A stretch of DNA of 64,000 nucleotides from Escherichia phage vB_EcoM_01, in sequence record PP129558. One strand, given 5' to 3'. Below, piece by piece: positions 208 to 64,000 of this stretch (position 1 is its first letter; the number at the start of each line of letters is the position of its first letter). Both the position numbers and the translations under genes were made by a program. The notes beneath the pieces were generated by a model. The model made no database searches. It was not told the DNA's origin and saw only the letters and a program-made list of their open reading frames with translations.

Positions 208-446
208 GAAAATTTTTAATAGGTATGTTCTGTACATATCCTGATAATAAAGTCAGTTCTACGAAAGTCTGGAACGCTGTAGGCATGTCGGTTATGACAG
301 GCATGTTTATCTTTTTAGGAATAGAAAAAGAAATTCCTGAATGGATGGGTTGGGCTTTTGTTTTCATGATAACTCCTTCTCGCCTCATGAAAAATCTTAT
401 TGATTTACGCTGGGGCAGATCACAATCTACCAAAGAGGATGACTAA
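204..446 (+). CDS. small hydrophobic protein
   Basis: 80 aa ORF, hydrophobic core, stop/start junction with flanking plus-strand genes; competing antisense ORF 113-433 judged less likely. Confidence 0.45.
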   Translation: MRKFLIGMFCTYPDNKVSSTKVWNAVGMSVMTGMFIFLGIEKEIPEWMGWAFVFMITPSRLMKNLIDLRWGRSQSTKEDD

Positions 447-1933: not shown

Positions 1934-1935
1934 AA

Positions 1936-2565: not shown

Positions 2566-2574
2566 GGAGTTTAA

Positions 2575-3636: not shown

Positions 3637-4182
3637 ATGATATTTACAAATTTTAAAAAGTATATTCCTGAAGATCCTGAACTAAAAGAATTGGTAGAAG
3701 CAGAGAACATTCTTTTCCTTCGTTGTGATCAAGGTTACGATTGGTATGATTTACGTAGCACAGAATTCAATAACGATAAAATGAAAGTCGTTTTTGATGA
3801 TCAAAATCGTATTGTGTTTTGGAATACTGATCCTACACTACTTTGCCCTGAAGATCTTTCTATAGCACAAGTAGACTTTAATATAGATACTTTTGAGGAT
3901 ATTAGGAACAAGGTTTTGGATTTAGAAACCTTAACTCTTAAGGATAAAGAGTATTCCCGTGAAGAGTTGATGACGCAAGCTAGTGCAAAGATTCGCTCTT
4001 TACAAGAGACAGCGGTAGCACTTATAACACCTTTACAATATGCTAAAGATTTAGAAATGGCTACTGAAGATGAATTAGCTTATCTTAAAAATCTTCAAGT
4101 TTATGTGGTTAAACTAAACCGTGTTCCGCTTCAAAAAAACTATCCTTACACTATAGATTGGCCTACATTACCGACGGAATAA
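3637..4182 (+). CDS. hypothetical protein (possible fibre assembly/chaperone)
   Basis: 181 aa ORF directly following the fibre gene. Confidence 0.5.
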   Translation: MIFTNFKKYIPEDPELKELVEAENILFLRCDQGYDWYDLRSTEFNNDKMKVVFDDQNRIVFWNTDPTLLCPEDLSIAQVDFNIDTFEDIRNKVLDLETLTLKDKEYSREELMTQASAKIRSLQETAVALITPLQYAKDLEMATEDELAYLKNLQVYVVKLNRVPLQKNYPYTIDWPTLPTE

Positions 4183-4191
4183 GGGATCACT

Positions 4192-4527
4192 ATGGAATTT
4201 CAAGAAGCATGGGGACTTGCAAAGGATGCAATCATCCCTTTAATCGGAGTCATCTGGTTCTTTTTCAAACAAAAAATGGATAAATTCGGCTCTGATCTTG
4301 AGGAAATGGAGGAGAAAAGTCGAGAGCTAGAGAAGAAGTTGGTCTTTGTTGAATCAACTTATGCAACTAAAGCCGAACTTACCCAGATGCTAAATCAAAT
4401 TAACTCTACATTAATGGCAAATAATAACACTCTTGAGCAAAAGATTGAAAAGATTATGGACCTCAAGAATGCTACTATTCAAATGATGCTAGATGACATA
4501 GTTAAACGTACACAGAATAAGGGGTAA
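4192..4527 (+). CDS. small protein with N-terminal TM helix and coiled coil
   Basis: 111 aa, hydrophobic IIPLIGVIWFFF then charged coiled-coil-like region. Confidence 0.5.
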   Translation: MEFQEAWGLAKDAIIPLIGVIWFFFKQKMDKFGSDLEEMEEKSRELEKKLVFVESTYATKAELTQMLNQINSTLMANNNTLEQKIEKIMDLKNATIQMMLDDIVKRTQNKG

Positions 4528-4530
4528 TTA

Positions 4531-7500: not shown

Positions 7501-7584
7501 ATACCTAATGATTCCAGTAATGTTTCTGTAGGTAATACTGCGGTTATTCGCCCAACGCCAGTAGTAGATGTGCCAACAACCTAA
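4531..7584 (+). CDS. tailspike/tail fibre with parallel beta-helix-like repeats (possible polysaccharide depolymerase)
   Basis: 1017 aa; recurring short motifs (FRNLTFMDMQG, FRNSRVMYWGG, ITIRNVFAKRC, VRNIHTKTG) typical of right-handed beta-helix; followed by a hairpin. Confidence 0.6.
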   Translation: MATFPTYPATSLEQGVDLVIFSSNQLHDVINGSATESIETESGLIPTLRKALVDNFFFKSPLDWAQGTNETVFNQLRYFQNGVLSGYYYAPNATLVNPIPMQGTPVGDNNWVLWGLKTEQLATEVTPWVYSGATGYETVISPPYIFDSAIVTINGVIQVLGEAFRIEDSKIILSEPLGHDPATGLPNKLFAYIGKIVASADTDPNLENRLVSLETKTEELTESMDKVPLQTIARKYGLLDDEVAYATAGQSLTGIKALYDPVAQSSYTLPPNITGTLTSLSVSGVMTYSGGSVDLSALAVERGQFVHLPTSFGNNVTLTAKNQTIGRGAGRYRWAGSLPKSILASDTLETSGGLGPNAWVLTNTEGLLTPRGGTYNDLFDVVYLSEFANNTTTYATPEAAFQAALLAAKASKSKILDAYGCDMTFTTSSFDIQDITLRGGVFRGQRDYRVQNATVEGTTFRNSRVMYWGGAVRMFDCLWDGAPRAGQVGSLVFQGNPISGTFEIDNCTFKNGLYGILQQGTGEPVTRGVFRNLTFMDMQGDAIELNVINKHYDDGCVIENIYLSNIDGTNAPIPLSNWGIGIGVAGKGPYGYGIPDDQYCKNITIRNVFAKRCRQIVHVEVGRNISIENIHGDPDQTVSVGTGLATGAVVMYGSKDFTIDGVYGEPKTDGSTLASNIRMIYLEWGTNAVLDEEGNPVVPAQGRPSNPCFNYSVRNIHTKTGRVFAGVSAGPGYENRVSFENIRCAALQLFGIASWLSMSNITCNIFDCVGQPESGPGTFYDGFFRREKSVLEMVNVNCYPDGKTMVTGRPQWSRCRYSDIHRVNCNVEANMYTNIAGGIGAIVGTTGKVYYLEPNPSRNIDGMHFPTGKEFDKGDMIVKADNTFFLVTTSGAYIPDIPAFGIRATQAGDTFLTQNLTPNGTATNASWLYHYPLSAGTRIRIPGAGVGGADLDTVITRAPYQDNDTWTNPVKIDIADPIVTPTSAGVRIKTIPNDSSNVSVGNTAVIRPTPVVDVPTT

Positions 7585-7590
7585 TGGAAT

Positions 7591-7612
7591 AGAGGGGGAA
7601 TCCCCCCTCTTC
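7591..7612 (+). terminator. stem-loop downstream of tailspike gene
   Basis: agaggggg-aat-cccccctct inverted repeat, weak T tract. Confidence 0.4.
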
Positions 7613-7646
7613 TTCCAATAGAATGGTCTAATGATAGGAGAGATAA

Positions 7647-9671
7647 ATGAATTTAACAAGACCTAATAGTGCGATAGCCGATCTGGTAGAAGCTACTTAT
7701 CGAAAACGTCGCAGCTTTGAGGCAGGTTTTACATTACGTAATTCCCGTGAAGTTTTGCTGTTAGCAGCAGAAGGGAATTATTACCAATGGAAAGGAACTT
7801 TTCCTAAAGTAGTTCCAGCAAACTCTACGCCAGCCACCACAGGTGGTATTTCTTCCCTTGCATGGCAAAGTGTTGGGACCGCTGATGATATAGCAATTAT
7901 CAATGCCAAGTTTACGGCAGTGCAACAACAGATCGATGATTTGTCAGAAGCAATACCTGAAGCTGGTAAATCGGCTTATCAGATCGCACTTGATAATGGT
8001 TTTGTTGGAACAGAAGCACAATGGCTTGCTTCTTTGAAAGGGGATACTGGTGCTCAACTTAATATTAAAGGATCATTAGCAAGCACTAGTGAACTACCAT
8101 CTACAGGTAACGTTGCAGGGGATGGTTATATCGTAGGTGATGTTATTTACGCTTGGGACGGTTCTGTTTGGAAACTTATTTCTTCTCTTGGACCAGAAGG
8201 GAAATCAGCTTACGAGGTATGGTTGGCAGATGGTAATACAGGATCTGTTTATGACTTTCTTGCCTCTATAAAAGGTGATAAAGGAGACGTTGGTCCTACA
8301 GGTCCACAGGGTGCACCTGGTGTCAACGCTAATGGTTTTGATTATCGTGGGGATTTGCCTTCTACAAGTAACTTACCACAACCTAACTCTGAAAACGTAA
8401 GCCAAGCTTATTCTATCAGTGGTAATCTTTATGTCTCCAATGGGACAGCTTGGGTCAACATGGGTAATATTGTTGGTCCTCAAGGTCCACAAGGTGAGGC
8501 AGGTAAAGACGGTCTAGATGGAACAGATGGAGATGAAGGGAAATCTGCATATCAAAGTTGGCTGGATGCTGGTAATGAAGGGACAGAAGTAGATTTTATT
8601 GCCTCGCTTAAAGGTCCAAAAGGAGACAAGGGAGAGCAAGGAGAACGAGGACCACAAGGCGAATTAGGTCCACAAGGACCAGTGGGTGCAACAGGATCAG
8701 GTTTAGAGATTATCGGGGTTCTGAACAGCGAAGCTGAACTTCCTCCGACTGGAGAAGTAGGTGACGCATATAAAATTAATAATGATTTGTATGTTTGGGT
8801 TCAAGATGCTACGGAATGGATGAATGTTGGTAGTCTTGGAGGAACATCAATTACAGCTAAAGGTCATGTTCCGAACAGTGAAGCTCTACCTGTTTACAAT
8901 AACTATGGTGATGCTTACTTAACTGAAGACACTAGTAATCTTTACATCTATACCTACGATCAAGACACCAATTCCGCATCTTTTGTTGACATGGGAAGTA
9001 TTAAAGGCGACAAAGGTGAAAAAGGGGATAAAGGAGATAAGGGTGATCCTGGAACAAACGGAACCAACGGTACTGATGGGACCAACGGTAAGGACGGCGC
9101 ACAGTGGTTTGTAGCAACAACTAATCCAGTCACAGGAGACGGTGTTATCAATGATTACGCCTTCAATACTACTACTGGAGCAGTATTTAAGAAAACAGAT
9201 TCTTCTACGTGGACACTTATAGGAACTCTTCCTAGTATACCAGAAGCCCCTCAAGACGGCTTGACGTATGGTCGTTCTGATGGAAACTGGATCGAAATAT
9301 CAGGATCAGATCCTACGGAAGCTATAACACCAACTAAAGTTACAGCAGGTTTCATGGAACTTGAAACAACTACTGCCAACTCTGGAGCATCTTGGACTCC
9401 TTCTGGAACTTCCAATATGTATGTTGTTACAGTAACTGACGCTCTGACAGTTGGAGCATGGCCTGGTGTCACTGGCTCTACAAAACCTAAAGCGTTTTCA
9501 GCAATGATTTATTTGATTCAAGATACAACGGGACACACGGTTACACTAGATGCGTCTTATGGAGCACTAAATGATACAGAAATAGCAACTACTGCTAACG
9601 CAGTAACAATTTTGCAATTAACGTATCCTGGTGTGGGTGATATCGTGGACATGGTTGTTGTAACACGATAA
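7647..9671 (+). CDS. collagen-like repeat tail fibre protein
   Basis: 674 aa; several Gly-X-Y runs (GPQGPQGEAGKDGLDGTDGDEG; GPKGDKGEQGERGPQGELGPQGPVGATG; GDKGEKGDKGDKGDPGTNGTNGTDGTNGKDG) and three copies of GKSAY(Q/E)..L(D/A)..G..F(L/I)AS(L/I)KG. Confidence 0.8.
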   Translation: MNLTRPNSAIADLVEATYRKRRSFEAGFTLRNSREVLLLAAEGNYYQWKGTFPKVVPANSTPATTGGISSLAWQSVGTADDIAIINAKFTAVQQQIDDLSEAIPEAGKSAYQIALDNGFVGTEAQWLASLKGDTGAQLNIKGSLASTSELPSTGNVAGDGYIVGDVIYAWDGSVWKLISSLGPEGKSAYEVWLADGNTGSVYDFLASIKGDKGDVGPTGPQGAPGVNANGFDYRGDLPSTSNLPQPNSENVSQAYSISGNLYVSNGTAWVNMGNIVGPQGPQGEAGKDGLDGTDGDEGKSAYQSWLDAGNEGTEVDFIASLKGPKGDKGEQGERGPQGELGPQGPVGATGSGLEIIGVLNSEAELPPTGEVGDAYKINNDLYVWVQDATEWMNVGSLGGTSITAKGHVPNSEALPVYNNYGDAYLTEDTSNLYIYTYDQDTNSASFVDMGSIKGDKGEKGDKGDKGDPGTNGTNGTDGTNGKDGAQWFVATTNPVTGDGVINDYAFNTTTGAVFKKTDSSTWTLIGTLPSIPEAPQDGLTYGRSDGNWIEISGSDPTEAITPTKVTAGFMELETTTANSGASWTPSGTSNMYVVTVTDALTVGAWPGVTGSTKPKAFSAMIYLIQDTTGHTVTLDASYGALNDTEIATTANAVTILQLTYPGVGDIVDMVVVTR

Positions 9672-15006: not shown

Positions 15007-18000
15007 TCAATGACAGGATGCCCAGGAATTACCCACGTCATATCCGGCAGTAAGCTGAACGTTAAGATTGTAAAATTCTCCAGCCTTAGTAACAGCTAAA
15101 GCAGCAAGCTCACCTGCCCGACTATAAGCTGTAAACCATCCACCTTTAGGAGATTCATGAATGTTAGCCCAAATTTGCCCTGTCTCTTTTTCCTTATTAT
15201 GCTTCCATTCTTCAACTTTAGCAAGGCATTCTTTATCAATTTTCTTTTGTTCTTCAGGATCGTCTACTTTCTTCCAACCTAATGATTCAGGTGAAAACCA
15301 TTTAAATTCTACAAGGTTACGAGAAACTTCAAGCTGGGCTTCATCGTGATATGCAATCATTTGTTGCACGAAGTCTTTATTCTTCCAGTCATCTTTAAAG
15401 AAGTCAACACTTAGCCCTTCTTCTTCTATCATGTCGTCATAAATAACCATTGCACGTTTAGCGCAGATAACCCCACCACTTTGGAACAGAGAGTTAAGAA
15501 TCGCGTGAGCAGAACGAGTAGGAACCTTACGACCGTCAATACCCAAAACATACTGTTTACCAGTCTTAACCCAGAAATCGTTTAAACGTTCTTTAAGACG
15601 TGCCAGTGGGAATGCAGCTTCCCAGAAAGCATCAAACACCAATTGACCTGTAAACTTATCGCTACCAATTGTTTTAGCAACCTTGTCGGCTTGTGCACCA
15701 TAGGTAATACCATACTTAACAGATTTAGCAGGACTACGTTCAAATTTACGTCCAATAGTTTCAGTGATACGTTTTGCCATCATTGTGTGAACATCGTTAG
15801 GTTTCTCTAACAACAGAGCGTTACAATATTCATGTGGCTCCGGCTCGTACCGCCAACAGTAGTGTGATTCAATTTTTGCTTCCAAAGAGTCGAAGTCGTA
15901 GCCGATCTGGAAGTATTTAGGCNNGTCTCTTATACACATCTGACGCTGCCGACGACAGACGTGGTGTGTAGATCTCGGTGGTCGCCGTATCATTAAAAAN
16001 NNNNNNNNNNNNNNNNNNNNNNNNNNNNNNNNNNNNNNNNNNNNNNNNNNNNNNNNNNNNNNNNNNNNNNNNNNNNNNNNNNNNNNNNNNNNNNNNNNNN
16101 NNNNNNNNNNNNNNNNNNNNNNNNNNNNNNNNNNNNNNNNNNNNNNNNNNNNNNNNNNNNNNNNNNNNNNNNNNNNNNNNNNNNNNNNNNNNNNNNNNNN
16201 NNNNNNNNNNNNNNNNNNNNNNNNNNNNNNNNNNNNNNNNNNNNNNNNNNNNNNNNNNNNNNNNNNNNNNNNNNNNNNNNNNNNNNNNNNNNNNNNNNNN
16301 NNNNNNNNNNNNNNNNNNNNNNNNNNNNNNNNNNNNNNNNNNNNNNNNNNNNNNNNNNNNNNNNNNNNNNNNNNNNNNNNNNNNNNNNNNNNNNNNNNNN
16401 NNNNNNNNNNNNNNNNNNNNNNNNNNNNNNNNNNNNNNNNNNNNNNNNNNNNNNNNNNNNNNNNNNNNNNNNNNNNNNNNNNNNNNNNNNNNNNNNNNNN
16501 NNNNNNNNNNNATCATTGTGTGAACATCGTTAGGTTTCTCTAACAACAGAGCGTTACAATATTCATGTGGCTCCGGCTCGTACCGCCAACAGTAGTGTGA
16601 TTCAATTTTTGCTTCCAAAGAGTCGAAGTCGTAGCCGATCTGGAAGTATTTAGGAACCTCTACACCAAACAAGTTACGCATCTCCCATCCAAACAAAGAT
16701 GTGACACGAGGAATGTTAGCTACAGACCTATGCTTCATACGAGAGGTTGCAGCATCACATGTAGCTGCTGGGGTAGGAATACGACCATCCGCCCTTACTG
16801 CGGCTAAGAAACCTTTATCGTATTCTTGATCTTCTTCATCTTCTTCCCAATCAGCACCGCCACCTAAAATAGAGTTCCTACGATGCTTATACGTTAAGTA
16901 TTCTACAATCTGTGTAGCATAAGGGAATTTCTCACCCAAAGCTTGCAGGTTAGGACAGATTTCTTTTTCCTGACCTTTGGTAAAACATGGGTTAGTCAAT
17001 ACTTTAAGACCGCGACCTTTACCTTTTGCTATACGCTCTTGAATCTTCCTTTCCAAGGTTTCCGGTGTGCACTCCAGATGATCACAACGGTCCTGACAAA
17101 AATTAGAAGATAAAGTTTGCTCAACGTAAGCTCGAATACCTTTCTGAAGTTCTTCCTCGCTCTTTTTAATCTTGGTGCCAGATTTAAGAGTCAAGTCTTT
17201 ATCTTTATATTCAGACGGTACCCAACCTAATCCTACAAGCCAGTTTTTAATATGGGTTGTATCGTTCAATGTTGCAGGGATGTGAGGATCACATAAAGGC
17301 TCATCTGCTGCAACTGGCAGTTTCCACTCTTTCCCCAACATAACTAACCACCAATCTCCATCCCTCTCTTCCAAATGACCATCATGTTTCTTAGCAAAAT
17401 TGATCATATGGTTAGTTGGCTCTAAGTTCTTTTTAATTTGCAACTTAGGTGGAATAAAAGCCTTAAGATAGCCTTTTGTTGCTGGTTTAGGTGGCAAAAT
17501 AGGCTCAACGAGTAAACGAAGACGCTCCATTTCTGCATCCAAAAAAGCAAGGTTCTCTTCTGCTTGCTTCATGTTAAAAGCAAATCCACGGTGTTCCTGG
17601 CGTGTAATAATGTCTGCTACACGTTGTTCAAGTTCAAATGGACCTTCCCATTTATCATAATCACCCCACTCTTCCATAAGGTAATTATATACGCTTGTAT
17701 TAGCTTTGTTGTCATAGATACAGTAATAAAGCATATCCGCAGCAAAAGTCTTAAATCGATCTTCTTCTGGAATCTCTTTACGGAAATCTATTTTTACATC
17801 ACCACCTGCTTTTCGAGAAAGTGCTGCCAAGCTATGTCCTGATTTGCCCTCAATCTTTCGATCTGGGTTTAACACTTTACTCAAAATCAAGGAGTCAATA
17901 AGTTTTACCTTATTTTTGCCCCACGTATTATATTTAACACTGTAATCTAATCCATAAAACAGTTTTGTAGCCAACCAGTCGTAGTTGATACCGTTGTGAG

Positions 18001-19640: not shown

Positions 19641-19666
19641 TTTTTAATAAAAGGGCCGAAGCCCTT
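19641..19666 (-). terminator. rho-independent terminator after primase-helicase gene
   Basis: agggc-ttcg-gccct hairpin then TTTTATTAAAAA on minus strand. Confidence 0.55.
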
Positions 19667-21443
19667 AATAGTTGCTATCCGTAGGCAAATTAGCAGGATT
19701 GTTGAAATACTGCTCTTTGTCATGCAGAGTTGCAGTTCTAATGTCATAGTAAAACTGCCCTGCCGGACCAGTTTCCGAGAACTCACGGTTTTTTAGGATA
19801 AAGCAATGAGTCGTATTGCGTTCTACAGGGTCTTCAGCGGCTTTATCTCGTTCCAAAGCCAAGGTAATACCAGCACCTTTAGCCAAGAAACTACTACCCA
19901 TTGCATCGTCCTCTGTTAAGTGTTCATTGCCACCATTAGCCGACTTCTTAACGTGTGAGATGACGATAATGGTTATAGCATACTCTTTCATGATGCGCTT
20001 CAACCATGTTGCTAACTCTTCCTGGGCTTGAACATCCATACCAGAAAGCAAATCAGAATAAGGGTCGATAACAAGAATTGTTACTCCAAAATAGATGATC
20101 ATCTCCAAAACTTTTTCTTTGATAGACTCCACATCTGCTCCACGATCATCACACACATAAAAACGTGGTGATCCATCTTCTCTTTCGTAAAAATCTAGGA
20201 TTTTTTCTTTATTCTCTTCCAAGATTTGAAATTTCTCTTCCGGTGTTTTCCTGTGTAGAGGAATATGCAGGAACGAGGACAACAGGTTACGAGAATATTT
20301 CTTATAAGTTGCTTCCAAGGACAGAATACCTAGGGTATGTTCTGGGTGCGCAACAATAATATGTTTGGTGATCTCGTTCACCATCAAAGTTTTACCGATA
20401 CTGGTCTTTGCCAGGATAACTGTAATCTCTTCCTCTACTAAACCACCACCCAGCATATTTGCAGCAACACGCATAAAAGGAGGCAAGGTAATCATCTTGG
20501 ATTCCAAGCATTCTAATGCAGCTTCATACAAGACATTAGAAGCATAAACACCTGCTGGGGTGTATAGACGAGCACTCCAAAAAGCTTTTACGAAATCTTT
20601 TGCACGACCTTCTTCCAGATACTGATTGGCATCCTTAAGATCCATCTGCATACGGTAGACTTTGTTACGAGGCAGCACCTTAACAATATTTTCAAATGCC
20701 TCATTACCTGCTTTGTCATTATCCATGCAAACAATAATCTTCTTAAATTTTTCAAAGAAAGGATATTGTGCCTGAACTTGTTTATACATACTGGTTTCAC
20801 CAGTTGTGCCACTAACTACTGCTGGAAGTTCATATTTGTTGTCCAAGTTTTCAGACAGCATTTGATAAGCTGCCAGAGCATCGTGTTCACCACCTGTAAT
20901 TACCACAGTATGAGAACGGTCTGCAAAACGAATTTGTCCAAAAAGATCTACATCTTTACCTACTTGACCAATAGGTTTGCTGAAATCTTTAGGATGAATA
21001 CGACGCTTAAAACCAACCAACTCTTTACCGATAGTAGTTGGATATAAACAACTTTCTACTACCATCTGATCCCCTTCCTGACGGTATTCATAACGAACAC
21101 CATAGAAAGATGAAACTTTTTCTTTAATGCCTCGATAACCACGTGGGTTGGTTGATGTTTCTTGAACAATTTTACGATGAATCTGTTTATTAAATTCCGA
21201 ACCCACAATCTCCTCCTCTTCTTCTAAAACTTCACCATTTTCTCGTAACCATTCTACGCTAGGAATAGTGTATTCACACGCAAAGCACTTAGCACCTTTA
21301 TGCTCTCCATTAGAATCTAATCCATAAACCATCAGGTTATTACGAGAGCGATCCTTGCCATTTTTCATGCAGCGCGGACAACCTGTATGCCCTTCCTTGC
21401 TAAGATCAACATCAAATCCATATTTAGTTATAATGTGCGACAC
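19665..21443 (-). CDS. primase-helicase (zinc-finger primase N-term, DnaB-like helicase C-term)
   Basis: 592 aa; CPRC...CFAC zinc motif; SIGKT Walker A-like and ILVIDPYSDL Walker B-like. Confidence 0.65.
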   Translation of the reverse strand: MSHIITKYGFDVDLSKEGHTGCPRCMKNGKDRSRNNLMVYGLDSNGEHKGAKCFACEYTIPSVEWLRENGEVLEEEEEIVGSEFNKQIHRKIVQETSTNPRGYRGIKEKVSSFYGVRYEYRQEGDQMVVESCLYPTTIGKELVGFKRRIHPKDFSKPIGQVGKDVDLFGQIRFADRSHTVVITGGEHDALAAYQMLSENLDNKYELPAVVSGTTGETSMYKQVQAQYPFFEKFKKIIVCMDNDKAGNEAFENIVKVLPRNKVYRMQMDLKDANQYLEEGRAKDFVKAFWSARLYTPAGVYASNVLYEAALECLESKMITLPPFMRVAANMLGGGLVEEEITVILAKTSIGKTLMVNEITKHIIVAHPEHTLGILSLEATYKKYSRNLLSSFLHIPLHRKTPEEKFQILEENKEKILDFYEREDGSPRFYVCDDRGADVESIKEKVLEMIIYFGVTILVIDPYSDLLSGMDVQAQEELATWLKRIMKEYAITIIVISHVKKSANGGNEHLTEDDAMGSSFLAKGAGITLALERDKAAEDPVERNTTHCFILKNREFSETGPAGQFYYDIRTATLHDKEQYFNNPANLPTDSNY

Positions 21444-36946: not shown

Positions 36947-37397
36947 TTGCCGTTTTGGTCCATAATCTTTGATTATCTGACCCTCTGAAAGGTTTTGTAG
37001 TTGGATTGTTTATTTCATACTTTCCGTCTACAATAATGTCAACAAGATTTTTAATATACAAAGGCACTTCCTCAAAAGTATATCCTGTATACACCATTAT
37101 ATCTTTGCTTGACCCATAAACGTCTCTAACCTTTTCTATAAGGTTTTTAACATTGTAAATATTCTGCGGATCTAATGGCTCTCCTCCTAAAATTGTTAAA
37201 CCTTTTACAAACGGTCTTGACAAATCTTTTAAAACTTGCTCTACATTTTCGTGAGTAAACGGTTTCCCGTAAGAATAAGACCAGGCTTTTTGGTTAAAAC
37301 AGCCACGACAACCGTGGCTACAACCACTAACCCAGAGGGAGCACCTAACTCCCTCGCCATTAATAAGATCTACAGGTTCATATCCTGCAAAATTCAA
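36927..37397 (-). CDS. nrdG: anaerobic ribonucleotide reductase activating protein (radical SAM)
   Basis: 156 aa; CSHGCRGC cluster; immediately downstream of nrdD-like gene. Confidence 0.8.
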   Translation of the reverse strand: MNFAGYEPVDLINGEGVRCSLWVSGCSHGCRGCFNQKAWSYSYGKPFTHENVEQVLKDLSRPFVKGLTILGGEPLDPQNIYNVKNLIEKVRDVYGSSKDIMVYTGYTFEEVPLYIKNLVDIIVDGKYEINNPTTKPFRGSDNQRLWTKTASGWQSD

Positions 37398-39208
37398 AGA
37401 TGTTTCTCCCTTTGCAAAACTTCCTGCATTTTACCTTTGTTGTAAGGGCGTGAATTAGGGGCAGAAAGATACCCTGACACACGTCTAACTACAGAAATAG
37501 TTTCTTCTTCATGGTTGCCACAATCAGGACACTCAAACCCTTTAGCCGTTGCCTTAAATTCTCCATGAAAACCACACTTAAAGCATTGATCCACGGGCTG
37601 ATTAATACCAAAATAGTGAATATGTTCATAAGCGTAGTCTACTAAAGTCTCCAAAGCTTCTAAGTTATTCTTTAAGTTTGGTGTTTCGACATAACTTATG
37701 TTACCACCATTGCTAATCTGTGCAAAACCTGCTTCATAATCCCATTTTTCAAAAGGATTTGTTACCAACCATACAGGTTGATGAAAAGAATTAGTAAGAT
37801 AATCTCTTTCTACCAGACCTGGATATTTTTCATTTAAAGCTGTTGCAAATTTATAGCACAAGGATTCTGCTGGAGTTCCATAAAGACTAAATGCCAACTT
37901 AGATCGTTCTTTAAACACAGCACACACATCTTTCATATGTTGCAGAATGTTTTTACCTAGTTCCTTTTTATCTTTTTCCTCTGGATAAAGGATTTCCAAA
38001 GCTTCGGCAAGACCTACATAACCAATACTAATAGAAGCATAACCACCTTCAAACAAAGCACCAATTTCATCGTTGGCATTTAAACGCGCTAAAGCCCCTT
38101 CCATGAAAAGAATAGGGTTTTCAGATGCTTTGGTATGTCTGATACGGTTTACACGTAGCATGTGAGCATCGTAGGCTATCTCCATATGTTTATTAAGAAG
38201 ATCGGTGAAAGATTCTCCTTTACTTCTCGCTTCCGCAGCAATCAGAGGCAAGTTGATAGAAACTACTCCAAGGTTGAATCGTCCATCATATTTTTCTCCT
38301 TGTTCGGTGGCATAGTACGACAAAAAGGAACGACAACCCATGCTCGTAACAGTACCATCTGCTGATCCCGTAACTTCTTTGTTCAAAGGAACAGAAATAA
38401 AGTCTGGATAAATACGATCAGCACAACATGCCAAAGCTTGTTGCTTAAGGTCATAGTTAGGATCACTAGGTTTCATGTTAACGCCTTCTTGTAAAAAGAA
38501 AATAACTTTAGGGAATACAGGCGTTACATGATCTTTGCCTAGACCATTACTATGCACTTTAAGATAGTTAGCTGTGATCATTCTGCCAAAAACAGAGGTA
38601 TCCAGACCCATACTGATTGTAATAAAAGGAGATTGTCCATTTACACTCATTAAAGTATTAACCTGATACAAGAGAGTTTGCATAGCATCATATACATCTT
38701 GTTCGGTCATTTCCAGGGCTTCTTTCCTTGCATAACAGCCGTAGCGACGTTTGGTTATCTCCATGTTTTTAAGGAAACTAGCTTCAACATAAGGACTAAG
38801 ACCTTTATCAATGTGCGCACACGTTTGACCTCCATACTGACTGGAGGCAACAGCTTGAATGATTTGAGTTAGCACTGTAGTAGCTACCCCAATAGATTTT
38901 GGTTTTTCTATCTGTGCGGCTCCGATCTTAAAACCATTCTCTAACATATCTTGATAATTAACAAGACAACAGTTTGTAAGAGGAGAGAGCAGATAATCCA
39001 AGTCGTGAATATGCCCAAAACCTTCTGTATGCCATTCTGACAAGTTTTTTGGCAGTATCTGTGTCATTGCCATATGTTTGCTTAAAATCCCCGCCAAGAG
39101 ATCCCTATGTGTGTTAACGAGGTGGGAAGGTTTGTTTGCATTCTCTCTAGTGTATGTTTCTGAAGTGCGATCTAAAAAAGAAAAAACATCTTGGTACAAA
39201 TCTTTCAT
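37394..39208 (-). CDS. nrdD: anaerobic ribonucleoside-triphosphate reductase
   Basis: 604 aa; C-terminal CFKCG...CPDCG zinc site and RRVSGYL glycyl-radical-like motif. Confidence 0.8.
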   Translation of the reverse strand: MKDLYQDVFSFLDRTSETYTRENANKPSHLVNTHRDLLAGILSKHMAMTQILPKNLSEWHTEGFGHIHDLDYLLSPLTNCCLVNYQDMLENGFKIGAAQIEKPKSIGVATTVLTQIIQAVASSQYGGQTCAHIDKGLSPYVEASFLKNMEITKRRYGCYARKEALEMTEQDVYDAMQTLLYQVNTLMSVNGQSPFITISMGLDTSVFGRMITANYLKVHSNGLGKDHVTPVFPKVIFFLQEGVNMKPSDPNYDLKQQALACCADRIYPDFISVPLNKEVTGSADGTVTSMGCRSFLSYYATEQGEKYDGRFNLGVVSINLPLIAAEARSKGESFTDLLNKHMEIAYDAHMLRVNRIRHTKASENPILFMEGALARLNANDEIGALFEGGYASISIGYVGLAEALEILYPEEKDKKELGKNILQHMKDVCAVFKERSKLAFSLYGTPAESLCYKFATALNEKYPGLVERDYLTNSFHQPVWLVTNPFEKWDYEAGFAQISNGGNISYVETPNLKNNLEALETLVDYAYEHIHYFGINQPVDQCFKCGFHGEFKATAKGFECPDCGNHEEETISVVRRVSGYLSAPNSRPYNKGKMQEVLQREKHL

Positions 39209-39308
39209 TATTAATCCTTATTTTGTGAGTAGAACTATTATTCTACCTCTTCCAACCGAAAAAAGCTTTGAGGAAAATCAAAAAAGGCGCAAAGTGCGCC
39301 TTTAAGTT

Positions 39309-40727
39309 TTATCGTTTGGAGAGGAATTGTCTTCCCATGATCTTACCGTTCTTTACAGCGGTCCCATCGTGTCCATTATAATCCCAAGTTCCATCAATGT
39401 TACGCAAGAAGCTATCACGAACAGTGTAGGCTTTACCGTTCTCTACTTTACTTTCTTCAACAATGATTGCCATAACAAGCTTATTTTCAATTTCGGTAGT
39501 AACCGATTCTTTAATACCCTCTGTAACTTCACGATCATATTGGATATAAACTCGCTCCTCGGTCACTTGCACGTCTACCACATTTTTAAATGTGTATGTC
39601 TGCTGTGTAGTGTAAAGGACACGAACAACACTCTTCTTACCTACTGGCGGCTTCTTACGAGGCTTACGGTAACGTGGTTTAGGGTTGTTAGTTGGAAGCC
39701 AACCAACAATATCCCGATCATATCCAACATGACCCCAAGTGAAATGCGTAGCCGATCCACTATCCGTAGTTCCGTCACGAAAGAGAACTTCTACGTGACC
39801 ACCACAAGGGCGGTGTCCACCATTATTATAGTTGTATTTTGCCGTGCGCGGGAGAATGAAGTATTCTTTAATTGCCCACTCTTCCAGATTGTCGATATTC
39901 CAAGTGAATACTGTTCCCTTAGCAACATCTGTTTGACCATTGTTGAAGCGAACCTGCACGAAATCTTCTGAAGGCATAACACCTGTGTTCGGCAGATATT
40001 CAAATGCAGTATCTTCCGCTACAAACTGTTCTTCCTCTTGCTCCTCAATACTTGGCACAGGCGCAGCTTCATCGTATTTCGCAGCAAACATATTTTTAAA
40101 TTCTTGAGCCGTGACTTCTACAAGGCCGCGATCACCAGTAGCAACAGAGTGTGGGCGTGGTAAATCCCCAACTTCAATATGCATTGCATCTAAGCCTGCT
40201 TGACGATCAAAGAAGATAACCTTGCGGAATTGTTTATCTTTATATTGTGGCAGTTCATACATACTTGGATCGATTGTCTTCAAACGTTCAGCATCTTCTG
40301 GCTTCCAGAAGCTTTTACCTGTTGCAAATCTAAAGTCTACCAGTAGTTTAACAACATCTCCTAATGATAAACTATCTGCATCTACGAAAACGTCTTCGAT
40401 TCCCAATAACCCTGATTTCTTAAGAATCAGATCTAACATGTAACCTCCTGTGGTTTGTTCTGCGTCTGGATAACGATCAACACTGGTGCTGGTTACACCG
40501 TTTATTTCACCAGTGGAGGCATTGTAGGAAATATATGGGAAGGTCATATCGTTCATTGCAAAATCACCTGAACAGGTTGGATCATCTTCTCCCTCCCAGC
40601 CATACACCTTCACAATACCTTCACATAATTTGTCATACACACCAGCGCGACGTGCTGCTTCAGCAACTTCCTGTTTACGGGCAAATTTATTAATCATGAT
40701 TCCTCCTGTTAATTGCCATAGATGCAC
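39309..40727 (-). CDS. hypothetical protein
   Basis: 472 aa ORF, no motif recognised. Confidence 0.55.
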   Translation of the reverse strand: MHLWQLTGGIMINKFARKQEVAEAARRAGVYDKLCEGIVKVYGWEGEDDPTCSGDFAMNDMTFPYISYNASTGEINGVTSTSVDRYPDAEQTTGGYMLDLILKKSGLLGIEDVFVDADSLSLGDVVKLLVDFRFATGKSFWKPEDAERLKTIDPSMYELPQYKDKQFRKVIFFDRQAGLDAMHIEVGDLPRPHSVATGDRGLVEVTAQEFKNMFAAKYDEAAPVPSIEEQEEEQFVAEDTAFEYLPNTGVMPSEDFVQVRFNNGQTDVAKGTVFTWNIDNLEEWAIKEYFILPRTAKYNYNNGGHRPCGGHVEVLFRDGTTDSGSATHFTWGHVGYDRDIVGWLPTNNPKPRYRKPRKKPPVGKKSVVRVLYTTQQTYTFKNVVDVQVTEERVYIQYDREVTEGIKESVTTEIENKLVMAIIVEESKVENGKAYTVRDSFLRNIDGTWDYNGHDGTAVKNGKIMGRQFLSKR

Positions 40728-41495: not shown

Positions 41496-43088
41496 TTAAC
41501 GATCCTCTCTGATTTGATTAATCTTACGAGCAAGGGCAGCTATAAGTTTATCTTCTTCAGATACAGGAGCCGTGCTCTTACCTAAACGATGCATGTCTAA
41601 AATCTCTTGAACAGTTCGGTTCCATTGCAGGCATTTAATACAACGTGTATGTGCAACATACAGAAGATTTCGTTCTGATTCTTCAAGACCTACCCACTCA
41701 CCCTTCTTATCATAATTGGAAGGAAAGTCATTTGCAACAATAACCTGATCCCACTCCAAGCCTTTTGATTTATGGGCTGTAGTTAAAGTAACTTTAGCCG
41801 TTGGGGAGTTACGGTGCATACGCAGAGTGTATGCAATATTACTAGCTTTACCAGAGACAACAATATTTAAAAGTCGTTTTGCATCAGGATCTGATTCTGC
41901 ACACTCTACGAACTCTTCCCAAGAAGTGTAAGGGAGAACTGTCTCATGTTTAACTTTGTCCAAATCTCCTCTACGTAAAGCATTAACGCTGTCAACCATA
42001 GAAATGAAATCTTTGGTATCTACGTTAATAATAATCTCTTCTCCGTTAGCGATTCGATCCATAGCTTCGAGCAACAGGGTCAAATTCTTACGGAAAATAA
42101 TGGTGTAAGGTTTACTATAATCTACCACATCAGAATGAAAACTTCCAGTGACAGTATCATAACCTTTGCCTACCAGCGGATGCTTCAGAGGTGAGCGATC
42201 AGAAAGGATCGCATTAGCAATGTCCGCAACTTTAGGACCAAAGCGAAAACAAGCTGTCAGAGGCAACTCAACCCCATATGTAGCCGTTTGCTTCATCATG
42301 TTCTGGCTTCCACGGAACTGATAAATACTCTGAAATTCATCACCCACAACAACAATACGTTTAGCCGATTTAGCATTGCGAAGGATAGACAGGAATGCAG
42401 GGTTAACATCCTGGAATTCATCTCCAAAAATAATATCATATCCTAAATCTTCTTTACTCAATTCGAAGAGTTTCACATAGGTGTCATGAGTCATAATGGT
42501 TTCTGATTTAGGATCAATACGCTCACGCCAAAGTTGCTTCGCATATTTAACAACTTCGTTAATAAGTTTTTGTTCGTTGATATTCTTACGTTTAAGATCT
42601 GACATATGCACTTTAGGAAAATGTTTATGTCCAATATGTTCATCGTCAGAAAACTCATATTTAGCTAAAGTTTGTTTTACCATTAACCCGATCATTGCAC
42701 GAGTCAGTAGCACTTTACCATTCTTATCAATCAAGTTCTGAATCTTGAATTTTTTGGCAATCTCACTACCAGTTCCAGCTACGTTAACATATTGACCTTC
42801 TGGACGAGACAATTTGTGTCGAAGGTTTTGTGGAAGACGCTGGTAACAGATTGAATGTAGCGTTCGGCACATAACATTAGGCGGCATTTTACGTCGAGCT
42901 TCCTCTGCCATACTTTTGTTAAACGCCAAGTATAGAATACTGTCATTTGTGCCATTAGCCAACATATACAGTGTTGACGTTTTACCTGATCCAGATTTAG
43001 CTTGAATTGTAACGAAACGATTTTCTTGATACCCACTTTCAATAGCATATTGTTCATCGGTAGGTGTAAAACTCAATTGTGTAGACAC
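41496..43088 (-). CDS. superfamily 1 DNA helicase (UvrD/RecD/Dda-like)
   Basis: 530 aa; Walker A QAKSGSGKTS, Walker B IIFGDEFQDV, C-terminal TTAHKSKGLEWDQVIV. Confidence 0.7.
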   Translation of the reverse strand: MSTQLSFTPTDEQYAIESGYQENRFVTIQAKSGSGKTSTLYMLANGTNDSILYLAFNKSMAEEARRKMPPNVMCRTLHSICYQRLPQNLRHKLSRPEGQYVNVAGTGSEIAKKFKIQNLIDKNGKVLLTRAMIGLMVKQTLAKYEFSDDEHIGHKHFPKVHMSDLKRKNINEQKLINEVVKYAKQLWRERIDPKSETIMTHDTYVKLFELSKEDLGYDIIFGDEFQDVNPAFLSILRNAKSAKRIVVVGDEFQSIYQFRGSQNMMKQTATYGVELPLTACFRFGPKVADIANAILSDRSPLKHPLVGKGYDTVTGSFHSDVVDYSKPYTIIFRKNLTLLLEAMDRIANGEEIIINVDTKDFISMVDSVNALRRGDLDKVKHETVLPYTSWEEFVECAESDPDAKRLLNIVVSGKASNIAYTLRMHRNSPTAKVTLTTAHKSKGLEWDQVIVANDFPSNYDKKGEWVGLEESERNLLYVAHTRCIKCLQWNRTVQEILDMHRLGKSTAPVSEEDKLIAALARKINQIREDR

Positions 43089-54237: not shown

Positions 54238-54478
54238 TATTTTAACTTTTTTCATTTTTAGAACAAAGGCGTCACTTTGTAGCACAGAAATAAGGCTCCT
54301 ACAGCACCGTAGAGAGCCTGTTATTTTGTCCTATACAAACCCTTGTCTTTTTCAGTTTGCATCACTAGGACTCGATCTGAGTGGGTTCCTGAAGGTCTGC
54401 CAATAAGATTAAAGGTTATCTCAAATTCCCATTACCTATTATCTCAAAAATCCCTCAAATTATTTAAACTTTTTAAGA

Positions 54479-54666
54479 ATTTACAAAAGTGAAAGTTGAA
54501 AACCAAAATTTAAAGTTTAGGAAAATTATCTTAAAATGTCAGATACAAAACAAAACTCAAAAGTCAAGGAAAATTTTAAAAATTTTGCGCGCCCACAGTA
54601 TTTAAAGTTTTTTTGCTTTTACAAAAATGAAAGTACAAAAGCAAAATTTAAAGTTTACAAAAATTT
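54479..54666. repeat. pair of ~45 bp direct repeats (about 88 percent identical) plus recurring tttaaagttt
   Basis: copy 1 at 54479-54526, copy 2 at 54617-54666. Confidence 0.6.
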
Positions 54667-54705
54667 ATGCAGATGGGAATGAGAAGAGTTCTCATATGGA
54701 AATGC

Positions 54706-54784
54706 AAATGATAATGATTCGCATTTAGGTTTATAAATGAGATTGATTCTTATTTGATAAGGTAAATGATAATCATTCTCATTT
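54706..54784. promoter_or_regulatory. two Fur-box-like motifs
   Basis: aaaTGATAATGATTCGCATTt (54706-54726) and aaaTGATAATCATTCTCATTt (54764-54784); resemble Fur box GATAATGATAATCATTATC. Confidence 0.4.
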
Positions 54785-55010
54785 AGAGAATGACGCGCAG
54801 GGGCGGTGTTTGTCTCGCGCTCCCGTGTCCCCTCGCCATGTAATAAGAATAACAGATCCAGCCAGGAAAGCAAGCGATTATTTTATCTTTACATTTCTTT
54901 ACAAATATATAGCGCCCAGCCTACCGGCGATCAACCTTCCAACCAGCGCCCTGGTATGTTAGCCCCGCCTTTACGCCGTGGGGTGGCGCTTCCTCTCCTG
55001 TATGTAAAAC

Positions 55011-55039
55011 AGTATAAGCCCGATCCCTGGGCTTGTCAA
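55011..55039 (-). promoter_or_regulatory. near-consensus sigma70 promoter on minus strand within GC-rich island
   Basis: TTGACA (rc 55034-55039), 17 nt, TATACT (rc 55011-55016). Confidence 0.45.
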
Positions 55040-55041
55040 GA

Positions 55042-55308
55042 TTATTTTTTGTTTTCTTGCCAGGATAGGACACCTAACCAAAAATGCATATCGCCCCGCG
55101 CCCCTGGCGGGATCTTGCTTTCCCCGCCGCCACTGCAAGCCCATAAATAACCATCAGCGAACGGATCAAAATGTTCTATCTCTTCCACTTTATGATCGCC
55201 CAGGTTGAGAACTGTTTCAACCTTTAAGCCCGTTGCGCTTGCTACCTGGTGCACCGTGCCGCCTTGCCAGCCCAATGAGTGCATAAGGTGTAATGTAGTA
55301 TTTGTCAT
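55042..55308 (-). CDS. hypothetical protein (GC-rich island)
   Basis: 88 aa ORF with non-repetitive composition; weak RBS. Confidence 0.3.
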   Translation of the reverse strand: MTNTTLHLMHSLGWQGGTVHQVASATGLKVETVLNLGDHKVEEIEHFDPFADGYLWACSGGGESKIPPGARGDMHFWLGVLSWQENKK

Positions 55309-55495
55309 GGTATCGCCCTTTCTTTGTTGTGCGCCCAGGTTGGCGCGGTAGAAAGATGATAGCCGTTTCCTTCATATATAGCAAGCAAAAAGAAAATAAA
55401 AAAGATTGAAAAAGTGGTTGACGTTCCTCACCTGGTAGCNNNNTANTCNACCGTCCACCAACAAAAAACATCATTCATCACCTGGAGTTAAAATC

Positions 55496-55693
55496 ATGGC
55501 AACATTGCACATTGTGGCGAAAGCAGGACAAATCAGCGTCGTGGTAAACGGTTTTACTGAGTTCAGTCATCCCCAGGATGATCATGAAACGGTTTTATCT
55601 TTCATTGATTCCCTGTTAGAAATGGGAGTCATTACAGAAGACCAGCACGCTACAAAATGCAAGCGCGTTAATCAAATTGCAGGAATAGAATAA
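55496..55693 (+). CDS. hypothetical small protein
   Basis: 65 aa; GGAG RBS. Confidence 0.5.
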   Translation: MATLHIVAKAGQISVVVNGFTEFSHPQDDHETVLSFIDSLLEMGVITEDQHATKCKRVNQIAGIE

Positions 55694-59055: not shown

Positions 59056-59163
59056 ATGTTAGAGAAAATTTTCACGGTTGTAATAGTGGGCCTGGCGTTA
59101 TTGGTTGGAGTGGTTGCAACTATGGCTAACATGATCCTATCTTCCCACGGTATCGGCTAAAAG
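59056..59163 (+). CDS. small hydrophobic peptide (35 aa)
   Basis: GAGGGTAGAATC RBS; MLEKIFTVVIVGLALLVGVVATMANMILSSHGIG; not in track. Confidence 0.45.
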
Positions 59164-59248: not shown

Positions 59249-59303
59249 NNNNNNNNNNNNNNNNNNNNNNNNNNNNNNNNNNNNNNNNNNNNNNNNNNNN
59301 NNN
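59249..59303. other. scaffold gap (N-run) with duplicated flanks
   Basis: 59094-59240 is repeated at 59304-59450. Confidence 0.9.
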
Positions 59304-59777: not shown

Positions 59778-59889
59778 TTGACACAGATCGCCAGTGTGCT
59801 AATATTTACCACGTAGGGCGGCAATGGNNNNNNNGANACNGATCGCCAGTGTGCTAATATTTACCACGTAGGGCGGCAATGGTGCCGCC
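59778..59889 (+). promoter_or_regulatory. promoter plus 5' hairpin module (duplicated by assembly artifact)
   Basis: TTGACA-16-TAATAT-ttaccacgtag-GGCGGCA atgg TGCCGCC; repeated after n block 59828-59840. Confidence 0.55.
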
Positions 59890-60298: not shown

Positions 60299-60429
60299 NN
60301 NNNNNNNNNNNNNNNNNNNNNNNNNNNNNNNNNNNNNNNNNNNNNNNNNNNNNNNNNNNNNNNNNNNNNNNNNNNNNNNNNNNNNNNNNNNNNNNNNNNN
60401 NNNNNNNNNNNNNNNNNNNNNNNNNNNNN
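60299..60429. other. scaffold gap (N-run) with duplicated flanks
   Basis: about 150 bp before the gap is repeated after it (60430 onward). Confidence 0.9.
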
Positions 60430-62456: not shown

Positions 62457-62471
62457 ATAACATTTCATACC

Positions 62472-62499
62472 AGGGCGCACAAAGCGCCCTTTCTTTTTG
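62472..62499 (+). terminator. rho-independent terminator
   Basis: agggcgc-acaaa-gcgccct hairpin followed by TTCTTTTTG. Confidence 0.65.
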
Positions 62500-62559
62500 C
62501 CCGAACAATGTTGATAGCTTTCGCCTATGAAAAACCGACACAGAACAAAACTGAATAAA

Positions 62560-63000
62560 TCGCGGTATCGAGCTAATCAACCATTAAACGAATAACCATA
62601 CCTCCCAGGGCAACAGGCTGTTAGAGAGCCATTTATAGCGGTTAAAATCGATCAACAACCAACAACAAACCATCAAAAACACCCTTTTACCTCCTTTCTA
62701 GTGCAATGATAACCATTATCATCTACCCATGATTATCTATGCAATATAAGCGCATAACTATAATGTTGATAATAGTTCGCAACAACTAACTAACCAACAA
62801 CCTAAAACAACAAGCAAACTAATCATAATCAAAGGAATAATAGCAAGATGATTGATAACGACAAACAATAAAACCATGATGAATACTAAGCAAGATAACG
62901 ATAACACGACAAAACAACCAACTAACGAACAATAACAAACGAAACCATTAAAATAATAACTATTAGCAAAATAGTGCCTGAATGAAATCATTACAAAACG
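62560..63000. repeat. strand-asymmetric A+C-rich low-complexity non-coding tract
   Basis: Plus strand dominated by caacaa/aacaa/ataac units, depleted in G and T; no credible ORF. Confidence 0.6.
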
Positions 63001-63023
63001 AATCATTCACAGAGTCATCATTA

Positions 63024-63240
63024 GCACGCTATGCCGGACACATAGCGAGCTAATAATAAGCCAACTACACCCCAACAATCATAACCATCGGTGATGGTTA
63101 TTTCTTGTTACTGCGTAGCTTGCAATAATTGCAAGCGTAATGACGCTTACACTTATTGCGCTGGCTTATTATTAGCATTATATGTAATTACCAAGATCAT
63201 AACATTAGCGCAATAACAATAATCATTGTGGTAATTACAT
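63024..63240. repeat. dense cluster of palindromes and inverted repeats
   Basis: cgctatg/catagcg (63026-63047); 14 bp arms 63049-63062 and 63163-63176; ataaccatcGgtgatggttat (63081-63101); gcttgcaatAattgcaagc (63118-63136); aagcgtaatgacgctt (63133-63148); atgtaattacc/ggtaattacat (63182-63192, 63230-63240). Confidence 0.7.
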
Positions 63241-63448
63241 AAGGAAATAATTAGCAAGATGAATAATTGCACGTAGCAACATGAGCGAATAGCGACAGNN
63301 NNCATAGTGTNNAAACATACAGGAAAATAAAGGCTAATCTTTTGGGGCGAATACTATCGCGTAGCGATATGTTGAGCAAGTTCTCTTAAACGTAAATAAA
63401 ATCAGAAAATTCTTGATTTGTTTTGGTTTTTATGTTAATAAACGTTTA

Positions 63449-63647
63449 AATAATAATCATTCTCATATAAATAATAGTCGGCTTGTCATGAGCGGGATTA
63501 GTTGACAATGTTCCGTCATATGATGAAGTTGCCAAGCCATTGATAAATAAGTGTTTGTGTGATTTATAATCAGGTGGCCCACCTTGTCGCTATGTTGGCA
63601 TGAGCCTTGCATAAGTCATTGAATACGAATGATAATTATTCTCATTC
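63449..63647. promoter_or_regulatory. two further Fur-box-like motifs
   Basis: aATAATAATCATTCTCATa (63449-63469) and aATGATAATTATTCTCATT (63627-63647); same core as 54706-54784. Confidence 0.35.
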
Positions 63648-63714
63648 GCATGATATTTGGGAATTGTCGCTGCGTGGACCTGACGGCCCGAAAATTCGCG
63701 TTAAGCACTTCTTA

Positions 63715-64000
<286 letters not shown>

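Follow-up and report, generated by a model that had tools for sequence, protein, structure and literature searches.

Organization of the gene-free region

The DNA analysed here, hereafter the window, is a stretch of 64,000 nucleotides from Escherichia phage vB_EcoM_01 (record PP129558), read on one strand from 5′ to 3′. It belongs to the genus Phapecoctavirus (phAPEC8-like myoviruses, subfamily Stephanstirmvirinae); its closest match is phage ukendt, at about 97% identity, and its final 1.4 kb of readable sequence is 94–97% identical to many Phapecoctavirus genomes. Our subject is the non-coding region at its right-hand end, which very probably is the terminus region of the genome in the form of a concatemer junction, the two terminal repeats being collapsed into one. 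Read rightwards, it consists of the terminator of the last, early-type gene of the right arm, an A+C-rich tract of about 440 nt, a hairpin and three-way junction together covering about 150 nt, a variable spacer with a small hairpin, a 328-bp direct terminal repeat (DTR) and the start of the left arm.

The last right-arm gene stops at 62456. Its intrinsic terminator (62472–62500, plus strand) consists of the stem AGGGCGC-ACAAA-GCGCCCT (62472–62490) followed by the T-run TTCTTTTT; it was found by a terminator scan, is invariant in six relatives and is annotated at the same place in the phAPEC8 and Schickermooser records. From 62457 to 63716 no credible gene was found among the 19 open reading frames (ORFs) of at least 25 amino acids listed. 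The longest, an 82-amino-acid ORF on the minus strand (62758–63006), was considered and rejected: it contains stops in phAPEC8, ukendt and Schickermooser and frameshifts in phiWec181/188, i.e. it is disrupted in five of five relatives and does not behave as a protein-coding sequence. An earlier note on this DNA, made from the sequence without database searches, had described about 1.2 kb without a credible gene after the last terminator, and this was confirmed: the gene-free stretch is 1.26 kb long within the window and about 1.5 kb long in complete relatives such as phAPEC8 (5512–7022) and ukendt (37840–39375). It measures 1.76 kb in the Justusliebigvirus phage inny, and gaps of similar length are present in phiWec181/188, Citrobacter Tr1 and Klebsiella KP13-26; in every relative examined, a last small right-arm gene and its terminator precede the gene-free gap. 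When the window is compared with the divergent phiWec181/188, the right arm, including the A+C tract, is 85–98% identical; a drop to 45–78% begins just before the repeat and goes on into the left arm. A tRNA scan of the whole window found none, and a search of a plasmid collection with the region gave no match.

The direct terminal repeat and its boundaries

A terminus has already been published for this genus. Korf et al. (2019; PMC6563267) linearized the genome of Schickermooser where the reads end abruptly and reported a terminal repeat of 328 bp; more generally, the genomes of Stephanstirmvirinae are said to ‘terminate with direct terminal repeats’ (PMC12695924). The homologous DTR of the window lies at 63375–63703 (plus strand), as a single copy recognized by homology to genomes that have the repeat at both ends. 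By this homology, the left virion end would be at 63375 (AGCAAGTTCTC...) and the right end at 63702 or 63703 (...AAATTCGCGTT[A]). The first base of the Schickermooser record (MK373788) aligns to 63375 and its last base to 63703, and the first 329 nt of that record are exactly its last 329 nt (328 bp in the paper). Mt1B1_P17 (MT496970) comes from another laboratory and is recorded in the opposite orientation; 328 nt are repeated exactly at its two ends, which read AGCA... and ...AAATTCGCGTT and correspond to 63375 and 63702. The repeat of the window is 96–98% identical to those of Schickermooser and Mt1B1_P17, with identical boundaries (AGCA... on the left, ...TTCGCGTT(A) on the right), and the non-coding flanks are the same on both sides; the difference is that the window holds one collapsed copy, through which the contig reads. 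Several other records start at 63375 (Ro121lw, three SA_NWU phages and BI-EHEC) or stop at 63702 (WPEC1/2/4/6). Beyond the repeat, the left-arm unique sequence begins with AGCACTTCTTA.G (63704–63716, plus strand), of which 63704–63714 matches Schickermooser 330–340 and phAPEC8. Since the contig passes unbroken from the right arm through one repeat copy into left-arm unique sequence, we take the window to be a collapsed-repeat, i.e. junction-like, assembly.

The earlier note had offered a replication origin, a packaging site or a genome terminus as possible meanings of the region, and comparison with the termini of related phages, one of the checks that it named, comes out in favour of the last: judged by homology to genomes whose ends were mapped, the segment from 63375 to 63702/3 is a DTR-type terminus. 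The features that the note had stressed, namely the A+C tract and the palindromes, are not the terminus itself; they lie 134–815 bp outside the repeat, in the subterminal part of the right arm. The note had also held that a terminus would be refuted if relatives showed the region as internal sequence. Such a test is invalid here, because phAPEC8 and ukendt show it internally as a result of the arbitrary linearization of their records.

The same homology to mapped-end genomes brings out a motif shared by the two boundaries. Both carry GTTR^AGCA in the same orientation, TGTTG^AGCA on the left and CGCGTT(A)^AGCA on the right, and each cut lies directly upstream of AGCA, the preceding bases being GTTG or GTT(A). 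TGTTG^AGC and TCGCGTT.AGCA are invariant in eight sequences representing five lineages, among which the boundaries are the best-kept parts of the repeat while its interior falls to 45–70% identity. The islands conserved within the diverged repeat (alignment A4) are (A/T)TGTTG^AGC..TCT.TTAAA on the left, TCGCGTT(A)^AGCA on the right, two Fur-like boxes and GATATTTG.

Upstream of the repeat lies a variable spacer (63243–63374, plus strand), the most variable and indel-rich part of the alignment of relatives (A2). It ends with the module GGGGCGAA (63344–63351), the hairpin TATCGC-GTA-GCGATA (63355–63369) and TGTTG. A small GC hairpin with a 3-nt loop, directly before the left cut (about 1–6 nt, depending on lineage and fold), is kept in other lineages with different sequences. 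The window has one copy of the complete module, GGGGCGAA-hairpin-TGTTG^AGCA, which is present in two to three tandem copies, with a period of 67–80 nt, in KP13-26 (3017/3084/3153 of locus L012), Tr1 (2770/2837 of L010) and a Logan contig (17319/17399 of L015). The heptamer ATTAGCA has four plus-strand copies in the region, for 0.2 expected, and none on the minus strand.

A covarying structured element before the repeat

The cluster of palindromes and inverted repeats described in the earlier note was borne out by folding. As single-stranded DNA, 63010–63245 has a predicted energy of −50.4 kcal/mol compared to −22.4 ± 3.3 for shuffled sequences (z = −8.6); as RNA, the z-score is −6.7 for the plus strand and −8.4 for the minus strand. 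The segment 63017–63241 contains a perfect 9-1-9 palindrome, GCTTGCAAT-A-ATTGCAAGC, a hairpin, ATAACCATC-GGT-GATGGTTAT, and pairs of arms of 24 and 20 nt. Its conserved part, from 63027 to 63176, is single-copy in the window, sits 200–350 bp before the right terminal repeat and comprises two units. The first, hairpin H1 (63027–63047), has a 7-bp stem (63027–63033/63041–63047) and the loop CCGGACA, and extends through ATTAGC/GCTAAT to 63020–63054. The second is a three-way junction (63049–63176), in which a 15-bp outer stem (63049–63063/63162–63176) encloses a hairpin at 63083–63099 (63083–63089/63093–63099) and the 9-1-9 palindrome (63118–63136), which is invariant. A further long hairpin (63181–63241, arms 63181–63200 and 63222–63241) exists only in close Phapecoctavirus relatives and is not alignable in the other lineages.

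Covariation was assessed on an alignment of 11 sequences, later extended to 14, drawn from Phapecoctavirus, the phiWec group, Justusliebigvirus, KP13-26, Tr1 and further metagenomic lineages. The pattern used for the metagenomes, AGCTTGCAANNANTGCAAGC, was too degenerate and returned 120 loci, of which a profile filter kept five true homologues (L037, L048, L091, L118 and L128). In H1, three of the seven pairs show compensatory changes and 100% of the cells are paired (14 sequences); the inner hairpin at 63083–63099 has four covarying pairs, and the outer stem has three and exists in four different variants, all complementary. Over the whole element, 98.6% of the cells of 37 pairs are paired and 10 pairs display compensatory double changes (39 cells). 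None of 500 shuffles reached this covariation score, and when the partners were slid by 1–3 columns, as a control, pairing fell to only 22–46%. The alignment identifies a structured nucleic-acid element that is conserved throughout Stephanstirmvirinae, with compensatory changes across at least five lineages. Because the outer stem is complementary in each of its four versions and its arms are 100 nt apart, the changes are better explained by genuine base pairing, in single-stranded DNA, a cruciform or RNA, than by a binding site for a dimeric protein. In the literature, as far as we found, a covarying fold beside the known repeat has no description, the published accounts of the DTR giving only its length.

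The strand on which the fold forms bears on its nature. The seven non-canonical cells are all A.C on the plus strand, which become G.T or G.U on the minus strand, a modest hint of minus-strand folding. This is what one expects if a minus-strand RNA, or single-stranded DNA, folds, and one may ask whether 63027–63176, perhaps together with the tract beside it, encodes a non-coding RNA, the fold then mattering in the transcript rather than in the DNA. The strong covariation and the low RNA folding scores are in keeping with such a gene. However, a scan against Rfam 15 at E ≤ 1 gave nothing credible, the best hits (E = 0.12, an irrelevant plant miRNA, and E = 0.53) scoring well short of the gathering thresholds; sigma-70-like sites show no excess (6 found for 6.1 expected, from which we claim no promoter), and on neither strand did we find a conserved promoter; the U-run that follows the hairpin at 63081–63101 is not kept in the other lineages; and the central 9-1-9 palindrome never varies, which is more like sequence-specific recognition of DNA. 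We consider a non-coding RNA gene unlikely.

The A+C-rich tract

Between the terminator and the structured element lies a tract (62560–63000, plus strand) that is rich in A+C, poor in G, unstructured and made of CAACAA/AACAA units, as the earlier note had pointed out. Its A+C content is 67.1% (z = +5.1); 2,784 windows of the same 441-nt length, taken as background, average 50.9 ± 3.2%, and not one of them deviates as far. The sole comparable stretch, an A+C outlier at about 33 kb, was considered as a second tract and discarded, being the antisense of a minus-strand gene of 324 amino acids. From 62640 to 63000 there is only 10% G, and A+T amounts to 69%. Seven of the 59 copies of CAACAA in the whole window lie in the region, and so do three of the four plus-strand copies of AGCAAGAT(G/A)A, the element that the earlier note had found three times: AGCAAGATGA at 62842–62851, which reads AGAAAGATGA in Schickermooser and phiWec181/188; AGCAAGATAA at 62889–62898, identified by repeat count and in the alignment of relatives; and AGCAAGATGA again at 63253–63262, within an invariant ATTAGCA (all on the plus strand).

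A Rho loading site is, in textbook terms, a C-rich, G-poor and unstructured RNA downstream of an operon. On the transcript, the tract provides a C>G, unstructured stretch of at least about 80 nt downstream of a gene: the strongest C>G 78-nt window of the whole rightward block from 48 to 63.7 kb is at 62651–62728 (26 C and 3 G, a ratio of 8.7), and the minimum free energy of the tract as RNA is −44.7 kcal/mol compared with −105.5 ± 12 for other 441-nt windows, i.e. 5 standard deviations weaker, and no stretch of the block is less foldable as RNA. In other genera the homologous position is unalignable, yet it is again the G minimum of the locus (3–8% G in seven related loci), and in six of these seven the best C>G window is found 60–480 nt upstream of the palindrome. 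It is composition rather than sequence, then, that is kept between genera, as with known Rho utilization (rut) sites, which the tract also resembles in its C/G ratio, its weak structure and its place on the sense strand after a transcription unit. It differs from them in being far longer than is typical, at about 440 nt, and in following an apparently good intrinsic terminator. We tentatively propose, as one possibility compatible with a terminus region, that the tract is a predicted rut site.

An easily opened AT-rich tract next to hairpins could also be part of a replication origin, the hairpins acting as entry signals for a primosome or primase. The A+T content of 62640–63000 and its lack of structure, beside very stable hairpins, are in line with this, and the phage has a T7-like primase-helicase. 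Phage T7 has promoter-linked origins near its ends, and a phiOR promoter is annotated in the T7 record. On the other side, the DnaA-box pattern is found 78 times for 85 expected, with no exact box in the region; there are no conserved iterons, the copies of AGCAAGATGA varying between relatives; and cumulative GC skew, whose calculation the earlier note had suggested, has its extremes at about 12 and 48 kb, where they coincide with changes of gene strand, and no turning point at the region. The origin that the note had listed next to the terminus is therefore quite improbable.

Fur-box-like palindromes

The region further contains AT-rich palindromes that resemble the E. coli Fur box, which we take to be the 19-bp GATAATGATAATCATTATC, with a 7-1-7 core TGATAAT-N-ATTATCA. 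The earlier note had mentioned two such boxes; they are present, although the count is three good ones and a weak fourth at 62952. The first (62705–62723, core TGATAAC-C-ATTATCA) has one mismatch to AATGATAATCATTATC and is invariant in the alignment of relatives. The second (63449–63466, core TAATAAT-C-ATTCTCA) and the third (63628–63646, core TGATAAT-T-ATTCTCA) lie inside the terminal repeat. The second is conserved in Phapecoctavirus, the phiWec group, inny and Tr1, and the third in all lineages except Tr1, being duplicated in the phiWec group and inny. The sole other place in the window with such boxes is a second large gene-poor region (54240–55500), where strong palindromes are found at 54705–54727 (GCAAATGATAATGATTCGCATTT) and 54760–54783 (GTAAATGATAATCATTCTCATTT); repeated ‘aaagttt/gacaaaaat’ units occur nearby, at 54480–54660.

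Could these be real operators of the host Fur protein, serving iron control of phage functions or the use of Fur as an architectural factor? The three sites of the region and the two at 54.7 kb have only one or two mismatches to the 7-1-7 core (cores at 54709, 54767, 62707, 63451 and 63630). The pattern has 12 matches in the window for 1.63 expected, i.e. about 7-fold more, in a scan by consensus rather than by weight matrix, and the strong sites are all confined to the two non-coding regions. Conservation of the sites in inny (including AAATGATAATCATTATCAA), Tr1 and KP13-26 adds to this. Nevertheless, the full 19-mer consensus has a single match in the window, at 54762, with three mismatches; any dimeric protein may own AT-rich palindromes; and the candidate sites belong to a virulent phage, two of them within a terminal repeat, and no promoter convincingly overlaps them. 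We found no paper that links Fur to these phages, and genuine Fur operators seem doubtful to us.

State of the assembly and neighbouring sequences

The last part of the window (63768–64000) is a library artefact, recognized by exact string matches: Nextera/Tn5 read-through sequence (Tn5 mosaic end and i5-side adapter, 63768–63800) is followed by the 10-nt index CAGACGTGGT, the reverse complement of P5, poly-A and poly-G. An identical read-through with the same index is found at 15925–15999, inside the replication-gene module of the same scaffold; it is followed by 512 N (16000–16511), beyond which the sequence already given from 15809 onwards begins again. Similar overlap-plus-N joins exist at 59249–59303 (restart at 59124) and 60299–60429 (restart at 60179). 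Overlapping contigs from untrimmed reads have been scaffolded to make the window, so that ORFs spanning the joins are unreliable, and we flag the scaffold for its untrimmed adapters and duplicated overlaps. The earlier note was right that the contig ends in adapter sequence; its suggestion that this can mark a physical DNA end is ruled out in the present case. The onset of the adapter is 64 nt beyond the terminal repeat, there is an internal copy, and the library was made by tagmentation. Pre-existing DNA ends are not tagged in transposase library chemistry. The adapter is an assembly artefact, uninformative on physical ends.

With such a scaffold, the region might be a mere long intergenic spacer and its apparent terminus an artefact of assembly. 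Contig overlaps joined by runs of N, leftover adapters and the internal position of the region in many related records are all of a kind to raise this suspicion. But every lineage examined has kept the gap, the repeat stands at both ends of two independent genome records and has the same boundaries in each, and the covariation of the fold and the enrichment of motifs argue for function, which leaves this explanation a minimal likelihood. A local defect does exist within the variable spacer, where 63299–63312 is speckled with N. Relatives have a brief tandem duplication at this place (GCATAGTGT GCACATAGTGT), of which the window seems to lack one unit, and the local sequence is unreliable.

Elsewhere in the window, we noted genes for a baseplate J protein and two tail-spike proteins (446–9671, plus strand), an anaerobic ribonucleotide reductase (NRDD; 37394–39208, minus strand) and a UvrD-type helicase (41496–43088, minus strand). 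Just outside it, a non-coding stretch of about 300 bp separates the repeat from the first left-arm gene. Within this stretch, the motif GGGGTGT(G)TC-AAATAA occurs twice and is kept between genera (6810–6920 in the phAPEC8 locus, L001; 4025–4125 in that of inny, L007); an early promoter and a site for primase are candidate roles for it. A search of IMG/VR with the first left-arm protein found one locus only. The ‘PHIRE promoters’ of phAPEC8 (GTAGGGCGGCAATGGTGCCGC, at 556–575, 937–956, 1787–1806 and 3202–3221 of L001; compare 59790–59870 of the window) are GC-rich stem-loops, and one of them directly follows a sigma-70-like promoter (TTGACA-N17-TAATAT, 3165–3221). To judge from these sequences, they look like 5′ stem-loops of mRNAs repeated before many early genes, not like promoters.

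Proposed processing of the junction

What the region does is most likely, by analogy, what the concatemer junction of T7 does, i.e. it would be a T7-style processing region. The primase-helicase of the window (19665–21443, minus strand) is of the gp4 type, with Toprim and DnaB_C domains. Genomes replicated with the help of such an enzyme would form concatemers by joining through the repeat, so that each junction holds a single copy of it. A packaging nuclease would then cut at both boundaries, which share one motif, equally oriented (TGTTG^AGCA and CGCGTT(A)^AGCA), and displacement synthesis would duplicate the repeat. The adjacent fold could serve in cis as a recognition or fold-back element for the cutting or duplication of the repeat, while the A+C tract may load Rho, halting read-through of the rightward operon before the junction, and the Fur-box-like palindromes might bind a dimeric protein, either the host Fur or a phage factor.

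The T7 junction, with its 160-bp repeat, SRL/SRR, hairpin-forming inverted repeat and pacB, is similar in several respects: T7 too has a short repeat that is exact at the two genome ends, the subterminal region is without genes and its parts follow each other in the same order, and both phages have a gp4-type primase-helicase. Reading the right end of T7, we find the last gene, an inverted repeat with 19-nt arms that precedes the terminal repeat by about 170–210 bp, then arrays of short direct repeats and, finally, the terminal repeat itself. A hairpin intermediate in the duplication of the T7 repeat is mentioned in a passage of PMC4281155, which cites Chung & Hinkle (1990). The differences are as clear. 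There is no sequence similarity, and a 150-kb myovirus is compared with a 40-kb podovirus; the fold described here is much larger, multi-helix and covarying; no phage RNA polymerase promoter equivalent to phiOR/pacB was identified in the region; and the A+C tract and the Fur-like boxes are without counterpart in T7. Another parallel is the injection-stop (first-step-transfer) region of phage T5, a non-coding block with repeats and palindromes that lies inside a repeat of about 10 kb at the end that enters first. Here too a gene-free block rich in repeats and palindromes is found at an end of a phage with terminal repeats. In the present case, however, the block lies outside a 328-bp repeat and at the right end, and the two are likened by description, not by sequence.

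Several observations weigh against a T7-style junction or limit what can be drawn from it. The physical ends of this isolate are deduced solely from its relatives. In Justusliebigvirus BME3 (PP239276), the 342-bp repeat, as annotated, lies about 75 nt further right than the conserved boundary motifs would place it: its ‘DTR-L’ begins at a Fur-like box and ends about 75 nt past the CGCGTTA^AGCA boundary. The first 788 nt of this record recur exactly near its end, and the annotation looks to us like an artefact of assembly overlap rather than mapped termini; since it does not fit the boundary motifs and comes from a record with duplications, we dropped it as independent support. Given this shift, conservation of the boundaries outside Phapecoctavirus is unproven. 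Regarding mechanism, a single nicking specificity acting on opposite strands predicts inverted boundary motifs, whereas the motifs seen are in direct orientation; this would fit better with double-strand cuts, which leave the duplication step unexplained. The fold could also act in transcription or replication instead of packaging. Finally, two readings were considered and rejected. The 10-mer AGCAAGATGA as an iteron is real in this genome but not conserved in Schickermooser or the phiWec phages, and the high identity of the A+C tract is no sign of constraint, since the right-arm genes next to it are just as similar in the phiWec genomes.

A bolder version of the T7-style scheme would make the fold at 63027–63176 an undescribed cis-acting DNA element needed for duplication or cutting of the repeat, probably folded on the minus strand, with Fur as an architectural cofactor in the manner of IHF at lambda cos; we put it forward as a speculation that is unlikely to hold in this full form. 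Altogether, the observations of the earlier note were confirmed and its interpretation was partly supported, being partly right for a reason that was partly wrong. We found no earlier description of the covarying fold, of the motif common to both cut sites, of the tract resembling a rut site or of the Fur-like boxes.

At a practical level, the boundaries give exact coordinates for orienting Phapecoctavirus genomes, which start with AGCAAGTTCTC... and end with ...TTCGCGTT; many deposited records are arbitrarily linearized, and the repeat seems to be wrongly annotated in at least one record, BME3. More broadly, how short exact terminal repeats are duplicated and excised from concatemers is only partly understood, even in T7. 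The subfamily, whose coliphages are therapeutic candidates, provides a series of naturally occurring compensatory variants of a fold beside the junction, and these variants, together with cut sites that share a motif, are ready targets for mutational and in vitro packaging tests.

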